Both the position numbers and the translations under genes were made by a program. A stretch of DNA of 64,000 bases from Candidatus Aenigmatarchaeota archaeon (GTDB lineage: Archaea; Aenigmatarchaeota; Aenigmatarchaeia; Aenigmatarchaeales; Aenigmatarchaeaceae): contig JAGGXH010000064.1 of assembly GCA_021163145.1 (NCBI GenBank), positions 2,197 through 66,196 of the forward strand. The letters run 5' to 3'. Position 1 is the first letter of the stretch; the number at the start of each line of letters is the position of its first letter. Shown in pieces: positions 9,983 through 34,828 of this stretch. The notes beneath the pieces were generated by a model. That model was given only the letters and a program-made list of their open reading frames with translations. It was not told where the DNA came from and did no database searches.

Positions 9983-9996
9983 TTTAAAGATATAAT
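9983..9996 (+). promoter_or_regulatory. putative TATA box for tRNA-Ile(UAU)
   Basis: tttaaagatataat about 20-33 nt upstream of tRNA position 1; background is AT-rich so specificity is low. Confidence 0.2.
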
Positions 9997-10015
9997 ATAT
10001 TAATAATTAATACAT

Positions 10016-10133
10016 GGGCGGGTAGCTTAGCTTGGTTAGAGCGCTAGTCTTATAAATTAGCATTTAGCTAATTTTTTTGGCTATGCTCAATAAAAACTAG
10101 AGGTCGGGAGTTCAAATCTCCCCTCGCCCACCA
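10016..10133 (+). tRNA. tRNA-Ile (anticodon UAU) with ~40-nt canonical-position (37/38) intron
   Basis: Acceptor GGGCGGG/CUCGCCC+ACCA, D-arm GCUU/GAGC, anticodon stem CUAGU/ACUAG, loop CUUAUA|A (anticodon TAT at 10051..10053), intron ~10055..10094 forming hairpin attagc/gctaat, variable AGGUC, T-arm GGGAG-UUCAAAU-CUCCC. Confidence 0.75.
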
Positions 10134-10136
10134 TTT

Positions 10137-10162
10137 GGGCCGGTGGTCTAGTCTGGTATGAC
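10137..10162 (+). repeat. tRNA-Val 5' fragment (acceptor + D-arm, 26 nt), imperfect direct repeat of 11061..11086
   Basis: gggccggtggtctagtctggtatgac vs gggccggtggtctagcccggcatgac; no anticodon arm follows; contains the ATG of the downstream endonuclease ORF. Confidence 0.6.
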
Positions 10163-11075
10163 TATTAGAACGATTGGAAACAATATATGTAATGGAAATA
10201 AAAATAATTCTATGAAACAACTTGATAATCAAACAGTTAAAAAAATAAAAAATATGCGAAATTCCGGATACTCTTATTTCGAAATATCATCTAAGTTAAA
10301 AATAACAAAATCAACTTCATATAAATATGCAAAAAATGTTAGATTACCAGTAAAATCTAAGAAAAAAATAAGCAGAAAAATATACAAAAGGCAGAAGAAA
10401 TTTATTGAAAATTATGCAAAAACTAAAAAATTACCAAAGAATATTAAATGGAATATCAATAAAGCTAGAATAATTGGGCACTGTATTTTTGATGGGAGTG
10501 TTACTGATTTTAATGTTAATTATACCAATAGTTCTAAAAAAATAATTGACCAATTTATTAAAGATATCGAAATTGTTTATGGTTTAAAATATACAAACAT
10601 ATACATAAAAAAAGGAAGCGTGTTCGATAAATATACTGTTGCATATTCTTCAAAAAAACTATGTGAAGATTTGAAAAAATATAGTAAATCATATAATTCC
10701 ACATCAAATATGACAAAAGCTCCCAAAAAAGTTTTTATATCTGATAAAAAAATAATAAAGGAATTTATAAGAACATTTTGGGAAGATGAGGGTTGCATTA
10801 CAATTAATGGCGAGATACTTGGAAGAATAAAGAATAAAGGGCTTAGAGACGATTTATTAATACTTCATAGAAAAGTTGGAATTGCTTGTAGCCCATATAA
10901 TTGTTCAGATGGAGCATTTGGAATACGGATTATTATAAATAAGGAAAATTTAAATAAGTTTAAATCAGTATCATTTAAAGAAGCTATGATAGTTCGTGGC
11001 AACAACAAAGGAATGTTAAAGAAAAAGTTGTTAGAGAGGATATATAGACATTATTTAAATGGGCCGGTGGTCTAG
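10158..11075 (+). CDS. LAGLIDADG homing endonuclease-like protein with N-terminal HTH
   Basis: HTH-like IKNMRNSGYSYFEISSKLKITKSTSYKY; LAGLIDADG motifs ARIIGHCIFDGSV and FIRTFWEDEGCI; start codon in the tRNA-Val 5' fragment, stop TAG (11073..11075) inside the D-loop of the intact tRNA-Val. Confidence 0.6.
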   Translation: MTIRTIGNNICNGNKNNSMKQLDNQTVKKIKNMRNSGYSYFEISSKLKITKSTSYKYAKNVRLPVKSKKKISRKIYKRQKKFIENYAKTKKLPKNIKWNINKARIIGHCIFDGSVTDFNVNYTNSSKKIIDQFIKDIEIVYGLKYTNIYIKKGSVFDKYTVAYSSKKLCEDLKKYSKSYNSTSNMTKAPKKVFISDKKIIKEFIRTFWEDEGCITINGEILGRIKNKGLRDDLLILHRKVGIACSPYNCSDGAFGIRIIINKENLNKFKSVSFKEAMIVRGNNKGMLKKKLLERIYRHYLNGPVV

Positions 11076-11170
11076 CCCGGCATGACGTCACCCTTACATC
11101 CTTTCTTATGATTTATTAAGAAAGGTATGATAGGTGGATATCGCCAGTTCGAATCTGGCCCGGCCCACCA
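11061..11170 (+). tRNA. tRNA-Val (anticodon UAC) with ~33-nt anticodon-loop intron
   Basis: Acceptor GGGCCGG/CCGGCCC+ACCA, anticodon stem UCACC/GGUGG, loop CUUACA (TAC at 11095..11097), intron ~11099..11132 with hairpin cctttctta/taagaaagg, T-arm GCCAG-UUCGAAU-CUGGC. Confidence 0.75.
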
Positions 11171-21522: not shown

Positions 21523-22767
21523 TTACTTTATAAAAGCTGATAATCCTTTTTGCCTGTATTTATATATTTCCATATTTATTTTCTTTCCTGGTGGAACAGG
21601 TATCCCATAAACTCCTGCACCACCTGGAATATATTTAAATTTATCTTCTCTAAATAGCTTAATTAATTCAGCAGTTTTTTTATGAACTTTTTCAAGTTCA
21701 TTAATAGAAATATTTAATAGAACATTAGTTTCATTTTCAAATTTATTAACAAATTCTTTCCATAAATCTTGAACCCTATTTGACCAAACCTGTTTAATAT
21801 TTAAGGCAATAGCAATAATTTCTGATAATGGTATTATATGTATATATTTTGGTCTATGCTTAGGATGAATACCTTCTTTTGTGTCAGAAAGTTCCTTAAT
21901 TCTATAATCAACACCTTTTTTAATATAATTTTTACATTTTGGACATCTCCAGTTAAGTTTTTCGGCTTCTCTTGGACTAAAAAACATTAAGCAACCTCTG
22001 CATCTTGTTCGGTTATATTTGCCTTCAAGTGGATTAAGTCCAACATTTAATATACATTTTCTATTAGCTTCTCTTTTTAATGCCTTAGATATCTCATTAA
22101 AGCTAATTTCTTTTATCTTAAGTTTATTAAATTCTCTTCCCATCTTATTTGGCCAAGGACTATGAGCATCACTATTGCTAAGAAATGTTAATTTATGTAA
22201 TTCGCTAATCCTATCAGCCATATTTGTATCTGCTGATAATCCTAATTCTAGAAAATGAATTTTATTCCAGTATTTTCCATAACAATCTTTATATGAATCA
22301 AACTTAGAATATAATGAAAAATATGGAGTAAAAGCATGCGCGAATCCTATTAAACAATCTGACTCTATACACATTTCAGCTATTTGTTCAGCACTTAACC
22401 ATAATTTAGGTCTGCCATCTGTATCTAGATTTTTACAATGTTTTTTTATTTTTTCTCTTAGTTCATATACTTTTGATAAACTAGGAAATAATATAATATG
22501 ATGAACTCTGTTATTGTCTTCAACTTCAGTCTGTAAAATAAATTTTGTTCCATTTGGATGTTCAAAAATATCTTCAGTAACTGGTTTTAATTGCTGTTTT
22601 ATTAATTTGATCCATCTTTCATTTAATATATCAGCTGTTCCAACCAGTTGTAAACCTTTTAATAGAGCTTGTTCTCCGATTACTTTTGGGATCATCTTTT
22701 GACTAACTGCACCAGAATAAAGCCCATGTACATGGAGGTCGCAATTAACTTCTATAAAATCAGACAT
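21523..22767 (-). CDS. PHP-domain nuclease with C-terminal zinc ribbons, EndoQ-like
   Basis: N-terminal CDLHVHGLYSGAVS (PHP metal-binding His cluster); C-terminal CRGC...CPKC; size ~414 aa fits archaeal endonuclease Q; assignment from memory of family features. Confidence 0.4.
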   Translation of the reverse strand: MSDFIEVNCDLHVHGLYSGAVSQKMIPKVIGEQALLKGLQLVGTADILNERWIKLIKQQLKPVTEDIFEHPNGTKFILQTEVEDNNRVHHIILFPSLSKVYELREKIKKHCKNLDTDGRPKLWLSAEQIAEMCIESDCLIGFAHAFTPYFSLYSKFDSYKDCYGKYWNKIHFLELGLSADTNMADRISELHKLTFLSNSDAHSPWPNKMGREFNKLKIKEISFNEISKALKREANRKCILNVGLNPLEGKYNRTRCRGCLMFFSPREAEKLNWRCPKCKNYIKKGVDYRIKELSDTKEGIHPKHRPKYIHIIPLSEIIAIALNIKQVWSNRVQDLWKEFVNKFENETNVLLNISINELEKVHKKTAELIKLFREDKFKYIPGGAGVYGIPVPPGKKINMEIYKYRQKGLSAFIK

Positions 22768-24194
22768 TTTTTATACACCTTATACCAATTTTTATCTAAT
22801 AAATCAAATTTTCTTAGAGTTCTACAGAAATTTAGAAATTCCTTTCTAATCATAGGATAATAGTTATTCTGAAATTTTAAAATTATATTTCTTATTTCTC
22901 TACCTTCTTTTGTAAATATAATTTTATATTTTTTATTTGGTTTTGGACTTATTTGCTTTAATTTTATTAGCTCATATTTCTTGAAAACATTTATATATTT
23001 TTTTTGACCTCTTGCAATGTCAATACCCTTAATAATGTAACCGTCTTTGATTTTCATAAAAGCTTTTGTATACTGTAAATTTAAGAACAAATATATAAAT
23101 TTTAATCTATTAATCAGATTGAATTTATAAATATCATTGATTATAAGATTTATATTTTTGAACCAATCTGAATAAATTATCAATTTAGCTGTAGTAGGAT
23201 AATTACAGCATTTGATTTTTATATTTTCATTTTTAAATATTTTTTCTAATAATAAGAAATCTGAATTTAGCGTTTTTTTATTTAAGCTAATATGATGAGT
23301 TAAAAATGTTTTTGTCTGCTTTATAGGACTTCCGTCACCTGACAAAACACCTCTAATAAAATTATTATTGTCATATGGAATATTCACATCTAATAATTTT
23401 AAAAATAGTTCTTTTAGAATAATGCTACCAATATTCATTTCAAGTGTACCGCATGGTGATCTCGATTTTCTGCTTAAATGAAGCTTTGTGAATTTTTCTA
23501 TACCGGTTTGAGTTTTCCAAAATGCCTTTAATTGTTTTTCTTTTTTCTTTAGTTTGGGGTGACAATATATAGAAGCACTAATATCTTTTCTTCTTAGGTT
23601 TGATATGCTTTCTATAAAATCTAAAATAATATTAATTGTACTAGGGTCAGAATTTGTAAATGATGGTGCTTTCTTCCCACCTTCAGCGAAATATAAACCT
23701 AATGCAGCAGATGCCAATTCAGTAATTCTTATTTTTTTGTTAAAAATAATATCTTTTTTATAATATCCTCCAACTAATACTTTTAAATTGTTTAGTTGAT
23801 ATGCATAAATTGGAGTTAATCCTGTAGATTTCGGCATAATAGAAAGAATAGATATCTCGGAAGATTCTTTCTTATTTTCTCTAATTAAAGCCTCCTTTTC
23901 TGGAATTATATCTATAATCTTAATCTTCGGATTTTTAATCAACTTTTCCTTTTTGTATGAAATAATATAACTGTTTTCTGTTCTATGCATTTTTTTGAAT
24001 CTTATTGATTTATTATCTTTATTTGAAACTTCAACAACAGTTATTAAATTATTACAAGGTTTAGAAATAAAATTTTTAATGATACTCATTGGAATTGATG
24101 TAGTAAAATTAGATCTTATATGCGGTTTATATGTATTATTATTTATAATGCTATACTTGCTTCGATCCAAATTTAACTCACTAATATTTACCAC
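22752..24194 (-). CDS. LAGLIDADG homing endonuclease-like protein (free-standing)
   Basis: Motifs LGLYFAEGGK and FIRGVLSGDGSP; 3' end overlaps the start of the EndoQ-like gene by 16 nt. Confidence 0.55.
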   Translation of the reverse strand: MVNISELNLDRSKYSIINNNTYKPHIRSNFTTSIPMSIIKNFISKPCNNLITVVEVSNKDNKSIRFKKMHRTENSYIISYKKEKLIKNPKIKIIDIIPEKEALIRENKKESSEISILSIMPKSTGLTPIYAYQLNNLKVLVGGYYKKDIIFNKKIRITELASAALGLYFAEGGKKAPSFTNSDPSTINIILDFIESISNLRRKDISASIYCHPKLKKKEKQLKAFWKTQTGIEKFTKLHLSRKSRSPCGTLEMNIGSIILKELFLKLLDVNIPYDNNNFIRGVLSGDGSPIKQTKTFLTHHISLNKKTLNSDFLLLEKIFKNENIKIKCCNYPTTAKLIIYSDWFKNINLIINDIYKFNLINRLKFIYLFLNLQYTKAFMKIKDGYIIKGIDIARGQKKYINVFKKYELIKLKQISPKPNKKYKIIFTKEGREIRNIILKFQNNYYPMIRKEFLNFCRTLRKFDLLDKNWYKVYKKCLIL

Positions 24195-24347: not shown

Positions 24348-24542
24348 TCACGAATTATCTTCTATAAATTTTTCAAAACTTCTATCAAATGTTTTTTCAG
24401 CTTCTTTAGAAAAGCAACAAGCAGGTAGCTCATTTCTACTTAAATGAAATCGTAAACATTCACAACATATTACTTTTTTATCACATCCAGAATATGTACA
24501 AGGGCATTTTTCTAAATTTTTTTGAAAATTTGGACAGTGCAT
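24348..24542 (-). CDS. small Cys-rich protein (zinc-ribbon-like), short form of listed ORF 24348..24647
   Basis: MHCPNFQKNLEKCPCTYSGCDKKVICCECLRF...; the longer listed ORF reads into the tRNA gene so the internal Met at 24540..24542 is taken. Confidence 0.3.
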   Translation of the reverse strand: MHCPNFQKNLEKCPCTYSGCDKKVICCECLRFHLSRNELPACCFSKEAEKTFDRSFEKFIEDNS

Positions 24543-24553
24543 GAAAATCACAA

Positions 24554-24663
24554 TGGTGGGCGAGGAGAGATTTGAACTCTCGACCTCTACGTTATCAGCT
24601 ACGCCTCTATTGTATTGGAAAATACAAAGATGTAGCGCTCTAACCAAGCTAAGCTACCCGCCC
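24554..24663 (-). tRNA. tRNA-Ile (anticodon GAU) with 32-nt intron at a non-canonical position (anticodon-stem 30/31)
   Basis: 5' 31 nt identical to tRNA-Ile(UAU) at 10016; joining ...gagcgctac + gctgataacgtagaggtc gives stem CUACG/CGUAG, loop CUGAUAA (GAT at plus 24594..24596), variable AGGUC, T-arm GAGAG-UUCAAAU-CUCUC, acceptor CUCGCCC+ACCA; intron 24600..24631. Confidence 0.65.
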
Positions 24664-24720
24664 ATGTATTAATTATTAATATATTATATCTTTTTATAGT
24701 TTTGGTTTTAAATAGTTTTC

Positions 24721-33550: not shown

Positions 33551-34828
33551 ATGAATACAAAGGGAAAATATATGCAACAAAAATCTGTAAAATTTGCTAA
33601 TGATTTTCTAAATAATTATAGTCATTATAAATTAGATTTTATTAATGATTTTTATGGCATAGAGCCTATTGATAAGGATTTAGAAGATTTCAAAAACTTT
33701 TTCAAAGTTATGCAGTTGAAGGCAAAAGCATTGTCGCTTAAAATTATATCTAAAAAAACTGGCCTATCCAAGTCTTCTATTGGAAAGTGGGTATTTAACA
33801 TAAGTATACCACCAATAATCCAACTTCTCAATTATCACAATAAACTAACAAAAAAATGTAATAAGAAATGGTTATCTATTAACTCTACAAGAGGCGGAAA
33901 ATTAATTGGACAATGGATAGCTGTTCCTGAAACAATTGATAATTATCAAACTATAGTGAATTTTCTAGAACAGATAAAACCATTACAAATTGCATATGAA
34001 AGAGCTAAAAAATTTAAGATAAACTTAGAAAAACAAAGAACATTACTATTTGCTTATTTACTAGGCATAATGTTGGGTGATGCGAGTAAACATGGTATTA
34101 AGAGAAGAAACAGAACTTCAAGGCGTGTACAATTGGCATTAACAGGAGCACATAAATCAAATGAGAGAATTGGTAACTTTACATCTCTATGTGCAAATTC
34201 AATAGGATTAAGAATGAATAGAATTAAAGATATGCCAGCTGGTAAAATGAACATTAAACCATTTTATAGATGGAGTTCACAGTCTTCTTTGTTAGTTCAA
34301 TGGATATTTGATGTTTGTATGGGGCTTAACAATGATCAGACAACAACATATGATAATGTTAAAATGGGCTGGCTACTAAAGATGCCTAAACAATTTAAAA
34401 TATGGTTTTTACAAGGTTTAGCAGACTCTGATGGTTATGTAGATTTCAATTCTTTTCAAGTTGGAATAATCTCTCAACCTAATACTGATTTAATTAAGAA
34501 GATTATTGAAAGTTTTGGAGTCAAATGTTCCATAAAAATTTTCAGAGAAAACAATTTAGAAGCAGTTATTGTTTCTGTTGAAGATGCATATAAATTGCAA
34601 TTATTTAACCCAATTGTAAAGAGTTACAGATATTTTGAAATGCAACGTCTTGCTACAGCAAAAAAATTATCTTGGCATATGTCAGAGGATTTAAATCTTA
34701 AAATCGTAGAATTATTGCAATCAGGATTAGATGGAACTAAATTAATTCGGAAACTCATACAAGCAGAAAATATAAGAGTAAGACCAAATGTTATAAGAAG
34801 AATAAAGAGGGTGAACAAAATTGAATAA
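33551..34828 (+). CDS. LAGLIDADG homing endonuclease-like protein with N-terminal HTH (free-standing)
   Basis: HTH-like LKIISKKTGLSKSSIGKWV; LAGLIDADG motifs LLGIMLGDASKHG and FLQGLADSDGYV; ends 17 nt before the Kae1 N-terminal remnant. Confidence 0.6.
   Translation: MNTKGKYMQQKSVKFANDFLNNYSHYKLDFINDFYGIEPIDKDLEDFKNFFKVMQLKAKALSLKIISKKTGLSKSSIGKWVFNISIPPIIQLLNYHNKLTKKCNKKWLSINSTRGGKLIGQWIAVPETIDNYQTIVNFLEQIKPLQIAYERAKKFKINLEKQRTLLFAYLLGIMLGDASKHGIKRRNRTSRRVQLALTGAHKSNERIGNFTSLCANSIGLRMNRIKDMPAGKMNIKPFYRWSSQSSLLVQWIFDVCMGLNNDQTTTYDNVKMGWLLKMPKQFKIWFLQGLADSDGYVDFNSFQVGIISQPNTDLIKKIIESFGVKCSIKIFRENNLEAVIVSVEDAYKLQLFNPIVKSYRYFEMQRLATAKKLSWHMSEDLNLKIVELLQSGLDGTKLIRKLIQAENIRVRPNVIRRIKRVNKIE

Follow-up and report, generated by a model that had tools for sequence, protein, structure and literature searches.

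The window analyzed here, the whole stretch of 64,000 nt, comes from a DPANN archaeon represented by a MAG that NCBI labels Candidatus Aenigmarchaeota. It has a G+C content of ∼27% and is archaeal in its gene content, with thermosome, exosome, proteasome, and RNase P proteins as well as FttA and Kae1. Apart from an identical protein, which NCBI labels Candidatus Aenigmarchaeota archaeon, the closest homologue of the valyl-tRNA synthetase (ValRS) encoded in the window shows 67% identity and has no source name, and the labeled matches at 62 to 66% identity are mostly from Woesearchaeota, with some from Nanoarchaeota and Diapherotrites. We focused on a tRNA-Ile(GAU) gene at positions 24554 to 24663. 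The initial annotation had given these limits correctly and had left the strand, which is the minus strand, unstated. The parts of the gene are as follows.

24554..24663, minus strand: whole tRNA-Ile(GAU) gene, encoded CCA included (Rfam RF00005, 49 bits, matching at 24557-24663; our own tRNA-Ile(GAU) covariance model R1, 73.9 bits)
24632..24663, minus strand: 5' exon, 32 nt, tRNA positions 1 to 30 with two extra D-loop bases (sequence, ARAGORN)
24600..24631, minus strand: intron AUCUUUGUAUUUUCCAAUACAAUAGAGGCGUA, 32 nt, between positions 30 and 31 (top-scoring excision, giving a perfect tRNA-Ile(GAU))
24557..24599, minus strand: 3' exon, positions 31 to 73 (junction contiguous in the intronless homologue L123)
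24594..24596, minus strand: anticodon GAU (sequence, ARAGORN)
24554-24556, minus strand: encoded 3' CCA (sequence reading)

The precursor consists of GGGCGGGUAGCUUAGCUUGGUUAGAGCGCUAC (5' exon), AUCUUUGUAUUUUCCAAUACAAUAGAGGCGUA (intron), and GCUGAUAACGUAGAGGUCGAGAGUUCAAAUCUCUCCUCGCCCACCA (3' exon), and the predicted spliced junction reads ...GAGCGCUAC|GCUGAUAACGUAG... The gene is colinear, being neither split nor permuted as read from the sequence, and its intron is short and contains no ORF. Apart from the intron, the exons show no defect in the ARAGORN fold. The anticodon GAU sits in a class I body that is homologous to known tRNA-Ile(GAU) genes, supporting the assignment to this isoacceptor. 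A DUF6485 gene of 64 amino acids (24348-24542, minus strand), preceded by a Shine-Dalgarno-like GTGAT, starts 11 nt past the CCA on the same strand; given that this leaves no room for a promoter of its own, the tRNA and the DUF6485 gene are probably cotranscribed.

Deletion of 24600-24631 leaves 78 nt, which are identified by ARAGORN as tRNA-Ile(GAU), with the anticodon stem CUACG/CGUAG, the loop CUGAUAA, and the variable loop AGGUC. The initial annotation had proposed that a conventional cloverleaf is obtained only when exactly this segment is removed, and both ARAGORN and an exhaustive excision analysis agree with it. In the latter, all segments of 0 to 60 nt were excised at every position, and the resulting 4,374 variants were scored with a profile built from 18 archaeal tRNA-Ile(GAU) homologues that lack introns. 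The top score, 78.2 bits, belongs to the excision of exactly 32 nt after nt 32. An excision of the 37/38 type, the placement against which the initial annotation had weighed its own, reaches 57.8 bits with the same profile and thus scores lower, not higher. This analysis served as a stand-in for the tRNAscan-SE check proposed at the outset: tRNAscan-SE 2.0, a tool built for such introns, asks that excision restore a canonical tRNA scoring above the unspliced gene (PMC8450103), and here the unspliced gene scores 23.4 bits versus the 78.2 bits of the spliced form that ARAGORN calls Ile(GAU). On inspection, neither junction has base redundancy, so that the intron can be placed only at the noncanonical site between 30 and 31, with no sequence-equivalent canonical alternative; the homologues described below have the same placement.

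Standard programs give a different picture of the locus. Default ARAGORN, run without introns, finds no tRNA in the window, and its intron mode reports three genes, two of them with misplaced introns (Leu(CAG) and Leu(UAA)). The Rfam tRNA model and R1 both cross the target region via a 41-nt local end and therefore cannot place the intron, which is why exhaustive excision was used instead. One could accordingly imagine an intron at or near the canonical anticodon-loop position in a tRNA of another identity, either a tRNA-Leu(CAG) with a 22-nt intron, as ARAGORN -i gives for 24554-24663 (i(36,22)), or an intron at 37/38 with the loop UCUUUGA, and the 41-nt skip in both covariance models, leaving the intron unplaced, would be compatible with either. 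We find this scarcely credible. The Leu(CAG) reading takes GUAG of the intron as the 3' strand of the stem, joins that stem to the D-stem with no position 26 in between, and turns UGAUAACGUAGAGGUC into a long variable arm, where no stem is seen by eye; in contrast, every one of the intronless homologues nearest to the spliced target is a tRNA-Ile(GAU), and their variable loops have 5 nt. The product of the 37/38-type excision, besides its lower score, is read by ARAGORN as an out-of-register tRNA-Gln. No BHB was found at the Leu(CAG) or the 37/38 site, either in a BHB scan or by hand, and the homologues set the junction at 30/31. Both ARAGORN Leu calls were rejected because the two bodies are class I and Ile-like.

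The geometry of the splicing motif was fixed on the canonical 33-nt intron of a tRNA-Val(UAC) gene in the same window (11061-11170, plus strand), where the cut follows the second base of each 3-nt bulge, each bulge is preceded on its 5' side by the 4-bp central helix, and 8 bp make up the inner helix h'. This tRNA-Val(UAC), which has one U·U mismatch in its central helix, was itself overlooked by the Rfam gathering-threshold scan and by default ARAGORN. With this geometry, the following elements were found in the target.

24634..24637, minus strand: 5' strand of the central helix, C25 G26 C27 U28 (pairs 4/4 with GGCG; present in the MFE fold; covaries in relatives)
24602..24605, minus strand: 3' strand of the central helix, intron GGCG, intron bases 27 to 30 (BHB scan, alignment)
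24631..24633, minus strand: 5' bulge A29 C30|A, the last A being the first intron base (unpaired 3-nt bulge in the MFE fold)
24599..24601, minus strand: 3' bulge U A|G31 (BHB scan; (A/U)A|(G/A) in relatives)
24606..24630, minus strand: inner helix h' UCU/AGA (3 bp) and 7-bp hairpin UUGUAUU-UUCC-AAUACAA (folding)

The stretch from C25 to U28 runs from the D-stem end through position 26 into the first part of the anticodon stem, and the outer helix h comprises 2 bp, A23-U33 and G24-C32. The predicted 5' cut falls between 24632 and 24631 and the predicted 3' cut between 24600 and 24599. The motif therefore has two 3-nt bulges on opposite strands around a 4-bp helix, with the splice sites inside the bulges, and the target intron forms both h and h'. 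This makes it a strict hBHBh' motif and none of the relaxed forms (HBh', hBH, and BHL), correcting the initial annotation, which had held that a relaxed BHB would be needed. That annotation had rightly described the ttgtatt/aatacaa hairpin, which folding recovers, and had also marked the intron sequence ggcgtag as a decoy. Given that GGCG pairs in the central helix and UA|G bears the 3' splice site, ggcgtag is no decoy; it supplies the BHB with its functional 3' half. Relatives keep the counterpart of ggcgtag as G(G/A)(C/U)G(A/U)A|(G/A).

Folded without constraints, the precursor has an MFE of -35.8 kcal/mol, and three BHB elements, namely, the central helix, the 5' bulge, and h', already appear in this structure. 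An alternative fold, in which the cloverleaf body is combined with a CUAC/GUAG stem that uses GUAG of the intron, comes to -34.9 kcal/mol, and since the two are nearly equal in predicted energy, the precursor probably samples both. The BHB conformer requires the D-stem to open, the outer helix h being in competition with it, and the outer-helix pairs have an ensemble probability of 0.002 in the isolated RNA. The BHB scanner alone returned many spurious motifs in 130 nt. Because BHB-like patterns are this common by chance, the presence of a motif is by itself weak evidence, and what counts is its coincidence with the junction that restores the cloverleaf. With the junction held fixed, the chance of a 4/4 central helix together with an inner helix of at least 3 bp was 3.1e-4 (200,000 composition-matched intron shuffles).

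Comparative evidence came from other tRNA-Ile(GAU) genes. The synteny around ValRS is not conserved, as the homologues P0003 and P0012 (66 to 67% identity) have other neighbors and no nearby tRNA, and the contigs with an identical ValRS are from the same strain and thus uninformative for synteny; the search was therefore made for the tRNA itself. A genome scan with the exact pattern of the 3' anticodon-stem strand gave no match, and a relaxed 3'-exon pattern gave 119 loci in species-representative genomes. Intronless tRNA-Ile(GAU) genes with the same anticodon arm occur in three Aenigmatarchaeota MAGs (L123, L082, and L122). In these genes, L123 among them, GAGCGCTACGCTGATAACGTAGAGGTC is contiguous and equals the junction predicted for the target, confirming that junction at the level of sequence. 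Introns at 30/31 were found in L053 (Aenigmatarchaeota) and L077 (uncultured archaeon), with lengths of 20 and 47 nt. A metagenome scan for the signature of the intron 3' end added at least about 15 further true cases, with introns of 12 to 117 nt; the pattern was too degenerate, such that the 120 loci listed included ∼15 true tRNA-Ile genes. As this pattern fixed the base classes of the intron 3' end, it biases the sequence of that strand of the helix, not that of its exon partner.

In all of the fifteen other tRNA-Ile(GAU) genes with an intron or a permutation at 30/31, the central helix is formed 4/4. Across the 16 sequences, 96.9% of the helix cells are paired, a value reached by none of 500 shuffles, and slid controls gave 23 to 55%. 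The pairs also covary: G26-C is replaced by A26-U in 2 of the 16 sequences, position 27 is engaged in C-G in nine, U-A in four, and U-G in three, and four pairs in this set show changes on both sides. The outer helix, being invariant in the relatives, carries no covariation signal. Relatives of the BHL type, lacking h', are found among those with introns of 12 to 13 nt (L151, L163, and L226).

L053 (4730-4843) contains, besides its 30/31 intron, an additional 9/10 intron with a strict BHB (CGGG/CCCG; bulges UA|A and AC|G), and the tRNA-Ile(GAU) of L229, at a contig end, likewise has an additional intron at 9/10. In the Aenigmatarchaeota MAGs L026 and L105 and the uncultured-archaeon MAG L060, tRNA-Ile(GAU) shows insertions of 12 to 33 nt in the D-loop or near 26/27. 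Two metagenome contigs, L134 and L145, have a 30/31 intron ending in GGCGAA|G and an acceptor stem GGGCCCG, and their proteins are labeled Thermoprotei archaeon by NCBI, showing that the 30/31 junction is not confined to DPANN. The earlier remark that noncanonical intron positions are lineage restricted is thus true only loosely here: the junction recurs in Aenigmatarchaeota MAGs, but it is also found on these Thermoprotei-labeled contigs.

Taking the cloverleaf, the BHB, the intronless homologues, and the covariation together, the proposal of a tRNA-Ile(GAU) with a 32-nt intron at the noncanonical position 30/31 is well supported. We estimate a probability of about 90% that the locus is a functional, colinear tRNA-Ile(GAU) gene carrying an archaeal BHB-type intron of this length in its anticodon stem. 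From the observed motif, exon junction, and conservation and covariation in relatives, we infer how the intron would be cleaved and ligated and by which enzymes. The precursor would fold with C25-U28 paired to intron bases 27 to 30 (GGCG), and this 4-bp helix, flanked by the bulges AC|A and UA|G, would be extended by the outer helix A23-U33/G24-C32 on one side and by the inner helix with the intron hairpin on the other. The archaeal splicing endonuclease EndA would then cleave past the second base in each bulge, and an RtcB-type ligase would connect C30 to G31, freeing the intron, probably in circular form. The body would finally refold to the cloverleaf with the anticodon stem CUACG/CGUAG. 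Among ∼50 ORFs of the window that were scanned with Pfam, no genes for EndA, RtcB, or TiaS were found.

The locus could also be viewed as a pseudogene, that is, a copy of tRNA-Ile(GAU) disabled by a 32-nt insertion that is never spliced. The genome extends beyond the window and may hold another, intact GAU copy, and the window contains one other rearrangement of a tRNA gene, the 27-nt duplicate of a tRNA-Val 5' end described below. A disabling insertion, however, would not be expected to bring a complete strict BHB in register with the exon ends (P of ∼3e-4) and to leave exons otherwise without defect. The junction and the motif are, moreover, kept with compensatory changes in many lineages, the permuted relatives described below can work only if they are processed at 30/31, and the target and its paralogue have identical upstream blocks. 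With intact exons, an in-register strict BHB, and a conserved junction, a pseudogene is very unlikely, and we retain the functional gene as our reading.

The paralogue is a second isoleucine tRNA gene in the window, with which the target shares its upstream sequence.

10016..10133, plus strand: tRNA-Ile(UAU), intron of 40 nt at 10055-10094, nominal position 37/38 (Rfam, 57.6 bits; R1, 80.9 bits)
24664..24693, minus strand: AT-rich block of 30 nt upstream of the target, identical to 9986-10015; putative promoter region (sequence identity)

ARAGORN calls the spliced form of 10016-10133 tRNA-Ile(UAU), and this fold, together with a class I, Ile-like body, led us to discard its intron-mode call of Leu(UAA). 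The two Ile genes lie 14.5 kb apart in inverted orientation. Their first 31 nt are identical, as the initial annotation had noted (10016-10046 in the paralogue), and this identity extends 30 nt upstream, generating an exact block of 61 nt (30 nt upstream plus gene nt 1 to 31), the noncoding part of which probably represents the promoter region. Also in line with that annotation, the T-arms differ by a single compensatory pair, A50-U64 versus G50-C64, which makes up the differences at 2 of 38 nt in the 3' blocks. All differences between the two genes are confined to positions 30 to 40, the introns, and this T-stem pair; the introns are unrelated and located at different positions.

These sequence relations suggest that the pair arose through duplication or gene conversion in this lineage. 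The recent duplication suggested initially is plausible and is supported by the identical 30-nt upstream block, but gene conversion between older paralogues would also account for the pair. The idea that these are old paralogues, held alike by gene conversion or selection, is a real possibility, if one falling short of probable. The identical blocks stop sharply at positions 30 and 41, and together with the unrelated and differently placed introns they form a mosaic as expected from patchy gene conversion; tRNA-Ile(UAU) is, furthermore, widespread in other DPANN lineages (ARMAN; PMC3239211). Against this, 30 nt of identical noncoding upstream sequence are more easily explained by recent common descent, even though conversion tracts can include flanks. 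No further Ile paralogues were found in the retrieved homologue loci.

The intron of tRNA-Ile(UAU) differs from that of the target in its motif. At the nominal position 37/38 there is no strict BHB, the central helix being formed 1/4. At the sequence-equivalent position 38/39, a central helix UUAU/AUAA is formed 4/4, all A·U, with an inner helix of 6/7 and no in-register outer helix, corresponding to a relaxed HBh' motif. By comparison, the pre-tRNA-Ile(UAU) of ARMAN-2 has a canonical intron of 25 nt (PMC3239211), with a strict hBHBh' at 37/38. The relaxed form seen here hints at a broad-specificity endonuclease.

Immediately downstream of tRNA-Ile(UAU), beginning 2 nt past its end, the plus strand carries a duplicate of the tRNA-Val 5' end, 27 nt long (10136-10162) and 89% identical to 11060-11086. 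Between this copy and the real tRNA-Val(UAC) is an ORF of 305 amino acids (10158-11075, plus strand) with a borderline match to LAGLIDADG_3; its start lies in the first copy and its stop in the 5' end of the real tRNA-Val. From its sequence organization, the region 10136-11086 looks like an insertion beside a tRNA gene with target duplication. Two other ORFs resemble homing endonucleases, one with LAGLIDADG-like motifs by eye (22752-24194, minus strand) and one with a weak match to Pfam Hom_end (33551-34828, plus strand). We considered whether related LAGLIDADG-like ORFs near both Ile genes might explain the duplication as the work of a mobile element, and discarded the idea, as the three ORFs show no detectable similarity to each other.

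The relatives of the target display further gene structures at the same junction. In three MAGs, two from Aenigmatarchaeota (L075 3321-3400 and L111 6331-6412; MAGs KUA_Bin01 and AUK206) and one from an uncultured archaeon (L100 1579-1660), tRNA-Ile(GAU) is circularly permuted (contigs JAGDWU010000017.1, JAGGZO010000024.1, and CAYIKG010000025.1). Positions 31 to 73 come first in these genes, followed by a linker of 2 to 5 nt and positions 1 to 30. A leader/trailer duplex of 10 to 13 bp makes the same BHB at 30/31 as the target intron does, and the halves, once joined, give a perfect tRNA-Ile(GAU). In the metagenome locus L218 (minus strand), the 5' half of tRNA-Ile(GAU) lies 717 nt upstream of the 3' half, which is located ∼5,925 nt into the reverse-complemented locus, and GTTAGGCGGG after the 5' half is complementary to CCCGCCTAAC before the 3' half. 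This arrangement represents either an intron of ∼685 nt at 30/31 or a split gene.

Aligned by state, the 30/31 site is thus uninterrupted in L123, L082, and L122, occupied by a bulge-helix-loop intron of 12 to 13 nt or a strict-BHB intron of 20 to 117 nt (including the target) in others, by the ∼685-nt intron or split of L218, and by the permutation of L075, L111, and L100. We tentatively suggest, at close to even odds, that the 30/31 BHB junction of tRNA-Ile(GAU) is an old gene-structure character, mobile in form, that is shared by Aenigmatarchaeota-type DPANN archaea and Thermoprotei-labeled MAGs.

Archaeal BHB introns at noncanonical tRNA positions are well documented (Marck & Grosjean 2003; Sugahara et al. 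2008; reviewed in PMC4090602), and 30/31 has already been published as a noncanonical intron position and split position (PMC4090602). The target shares with the known cases the hBHBh' architecture, the cuts after the second bulge base, and the listed position. It differs from them in its motif, which is strict and not relaxed, and in its host, a DPANN MAG, whereas most catalogued examples are from Crenarchaeota and Thaumarchaeota. In the text that could be searched, no paper was found that names a family of tRNA-Ile(GAU) introns at 30/31. EndA variants of DPANN archaea have been linked to disrupted tRNA genes (PMC5829648). The split tRNA-Lys(CUU) of Nanoarchaeum equitans and Staphylothermus is joined at 30/31 as well (PMC3218864, PMC4090602), with a BHB made from the sequence after the 5' part and before the 3' part; it consists, however, of two separately transcribed halves and is another isoacceptor, while the target has both exons in order within a single gene.

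Circularly permuted tRNA genes have been described in Cyanidioschyzon merolae and, for tRNA-iMet and tRNA-Tyr at 59/60, in Thermofilum pendens (PMC3218864, PMC4033280). They have the order of 3' half, linker, and 5' half that is seen in L075, L111, and L100 but not in the target gene itself. In the papers that could be searched, T. pendens is the only archaeon for which permuted tRNAs are reported, at 59/60 (PMC3218864, PMC4033280), in contrast to the permutation point of 30/31 and the DPANN-type MAGs of the relatives. No report of permuted tRNAs in DPANN was found in a literature that was partially covered, and given this, the three permuted genes may be new.

The target intron is a well-supported, ordinary case of a known intron class, a clean strict-BHB intron at 30/31 that is now added from a DPANN lineage. 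Default gene finders miss or misassign the target gene, with ARAGORN reporting either no tRNA or, with introns, Leu(CAG), and with Rfam skipping the anticodon; as a consequence for annotation, a genome of ∼27% G+C would seem to be without a tRNA reading AUU and AUC, which are expectedly among its commonest codons. The near identity of the two Ile isoacceptors outside positions 30 to 40 bears on the origin of tRNA-Ile(UAU) in archaea without the agmatidine (TiaS) route. For ARMAN, a tRNA-Ile(UAU) that substitutes for the agmatidine system has already been documented (PMC3239211). The wider value lies in the relatives, where one conserved junction appears as an intron, as a long intron or split gene, and as a permuted gene. 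If real and unreported, the permuted genes would be without precedent both in DPANN archaea and at position 30/31, and if the shared junction is indeed an old character, the series would provide a natural test of the model in which intron-containing, split, and permuted tRNA genes interconvert.
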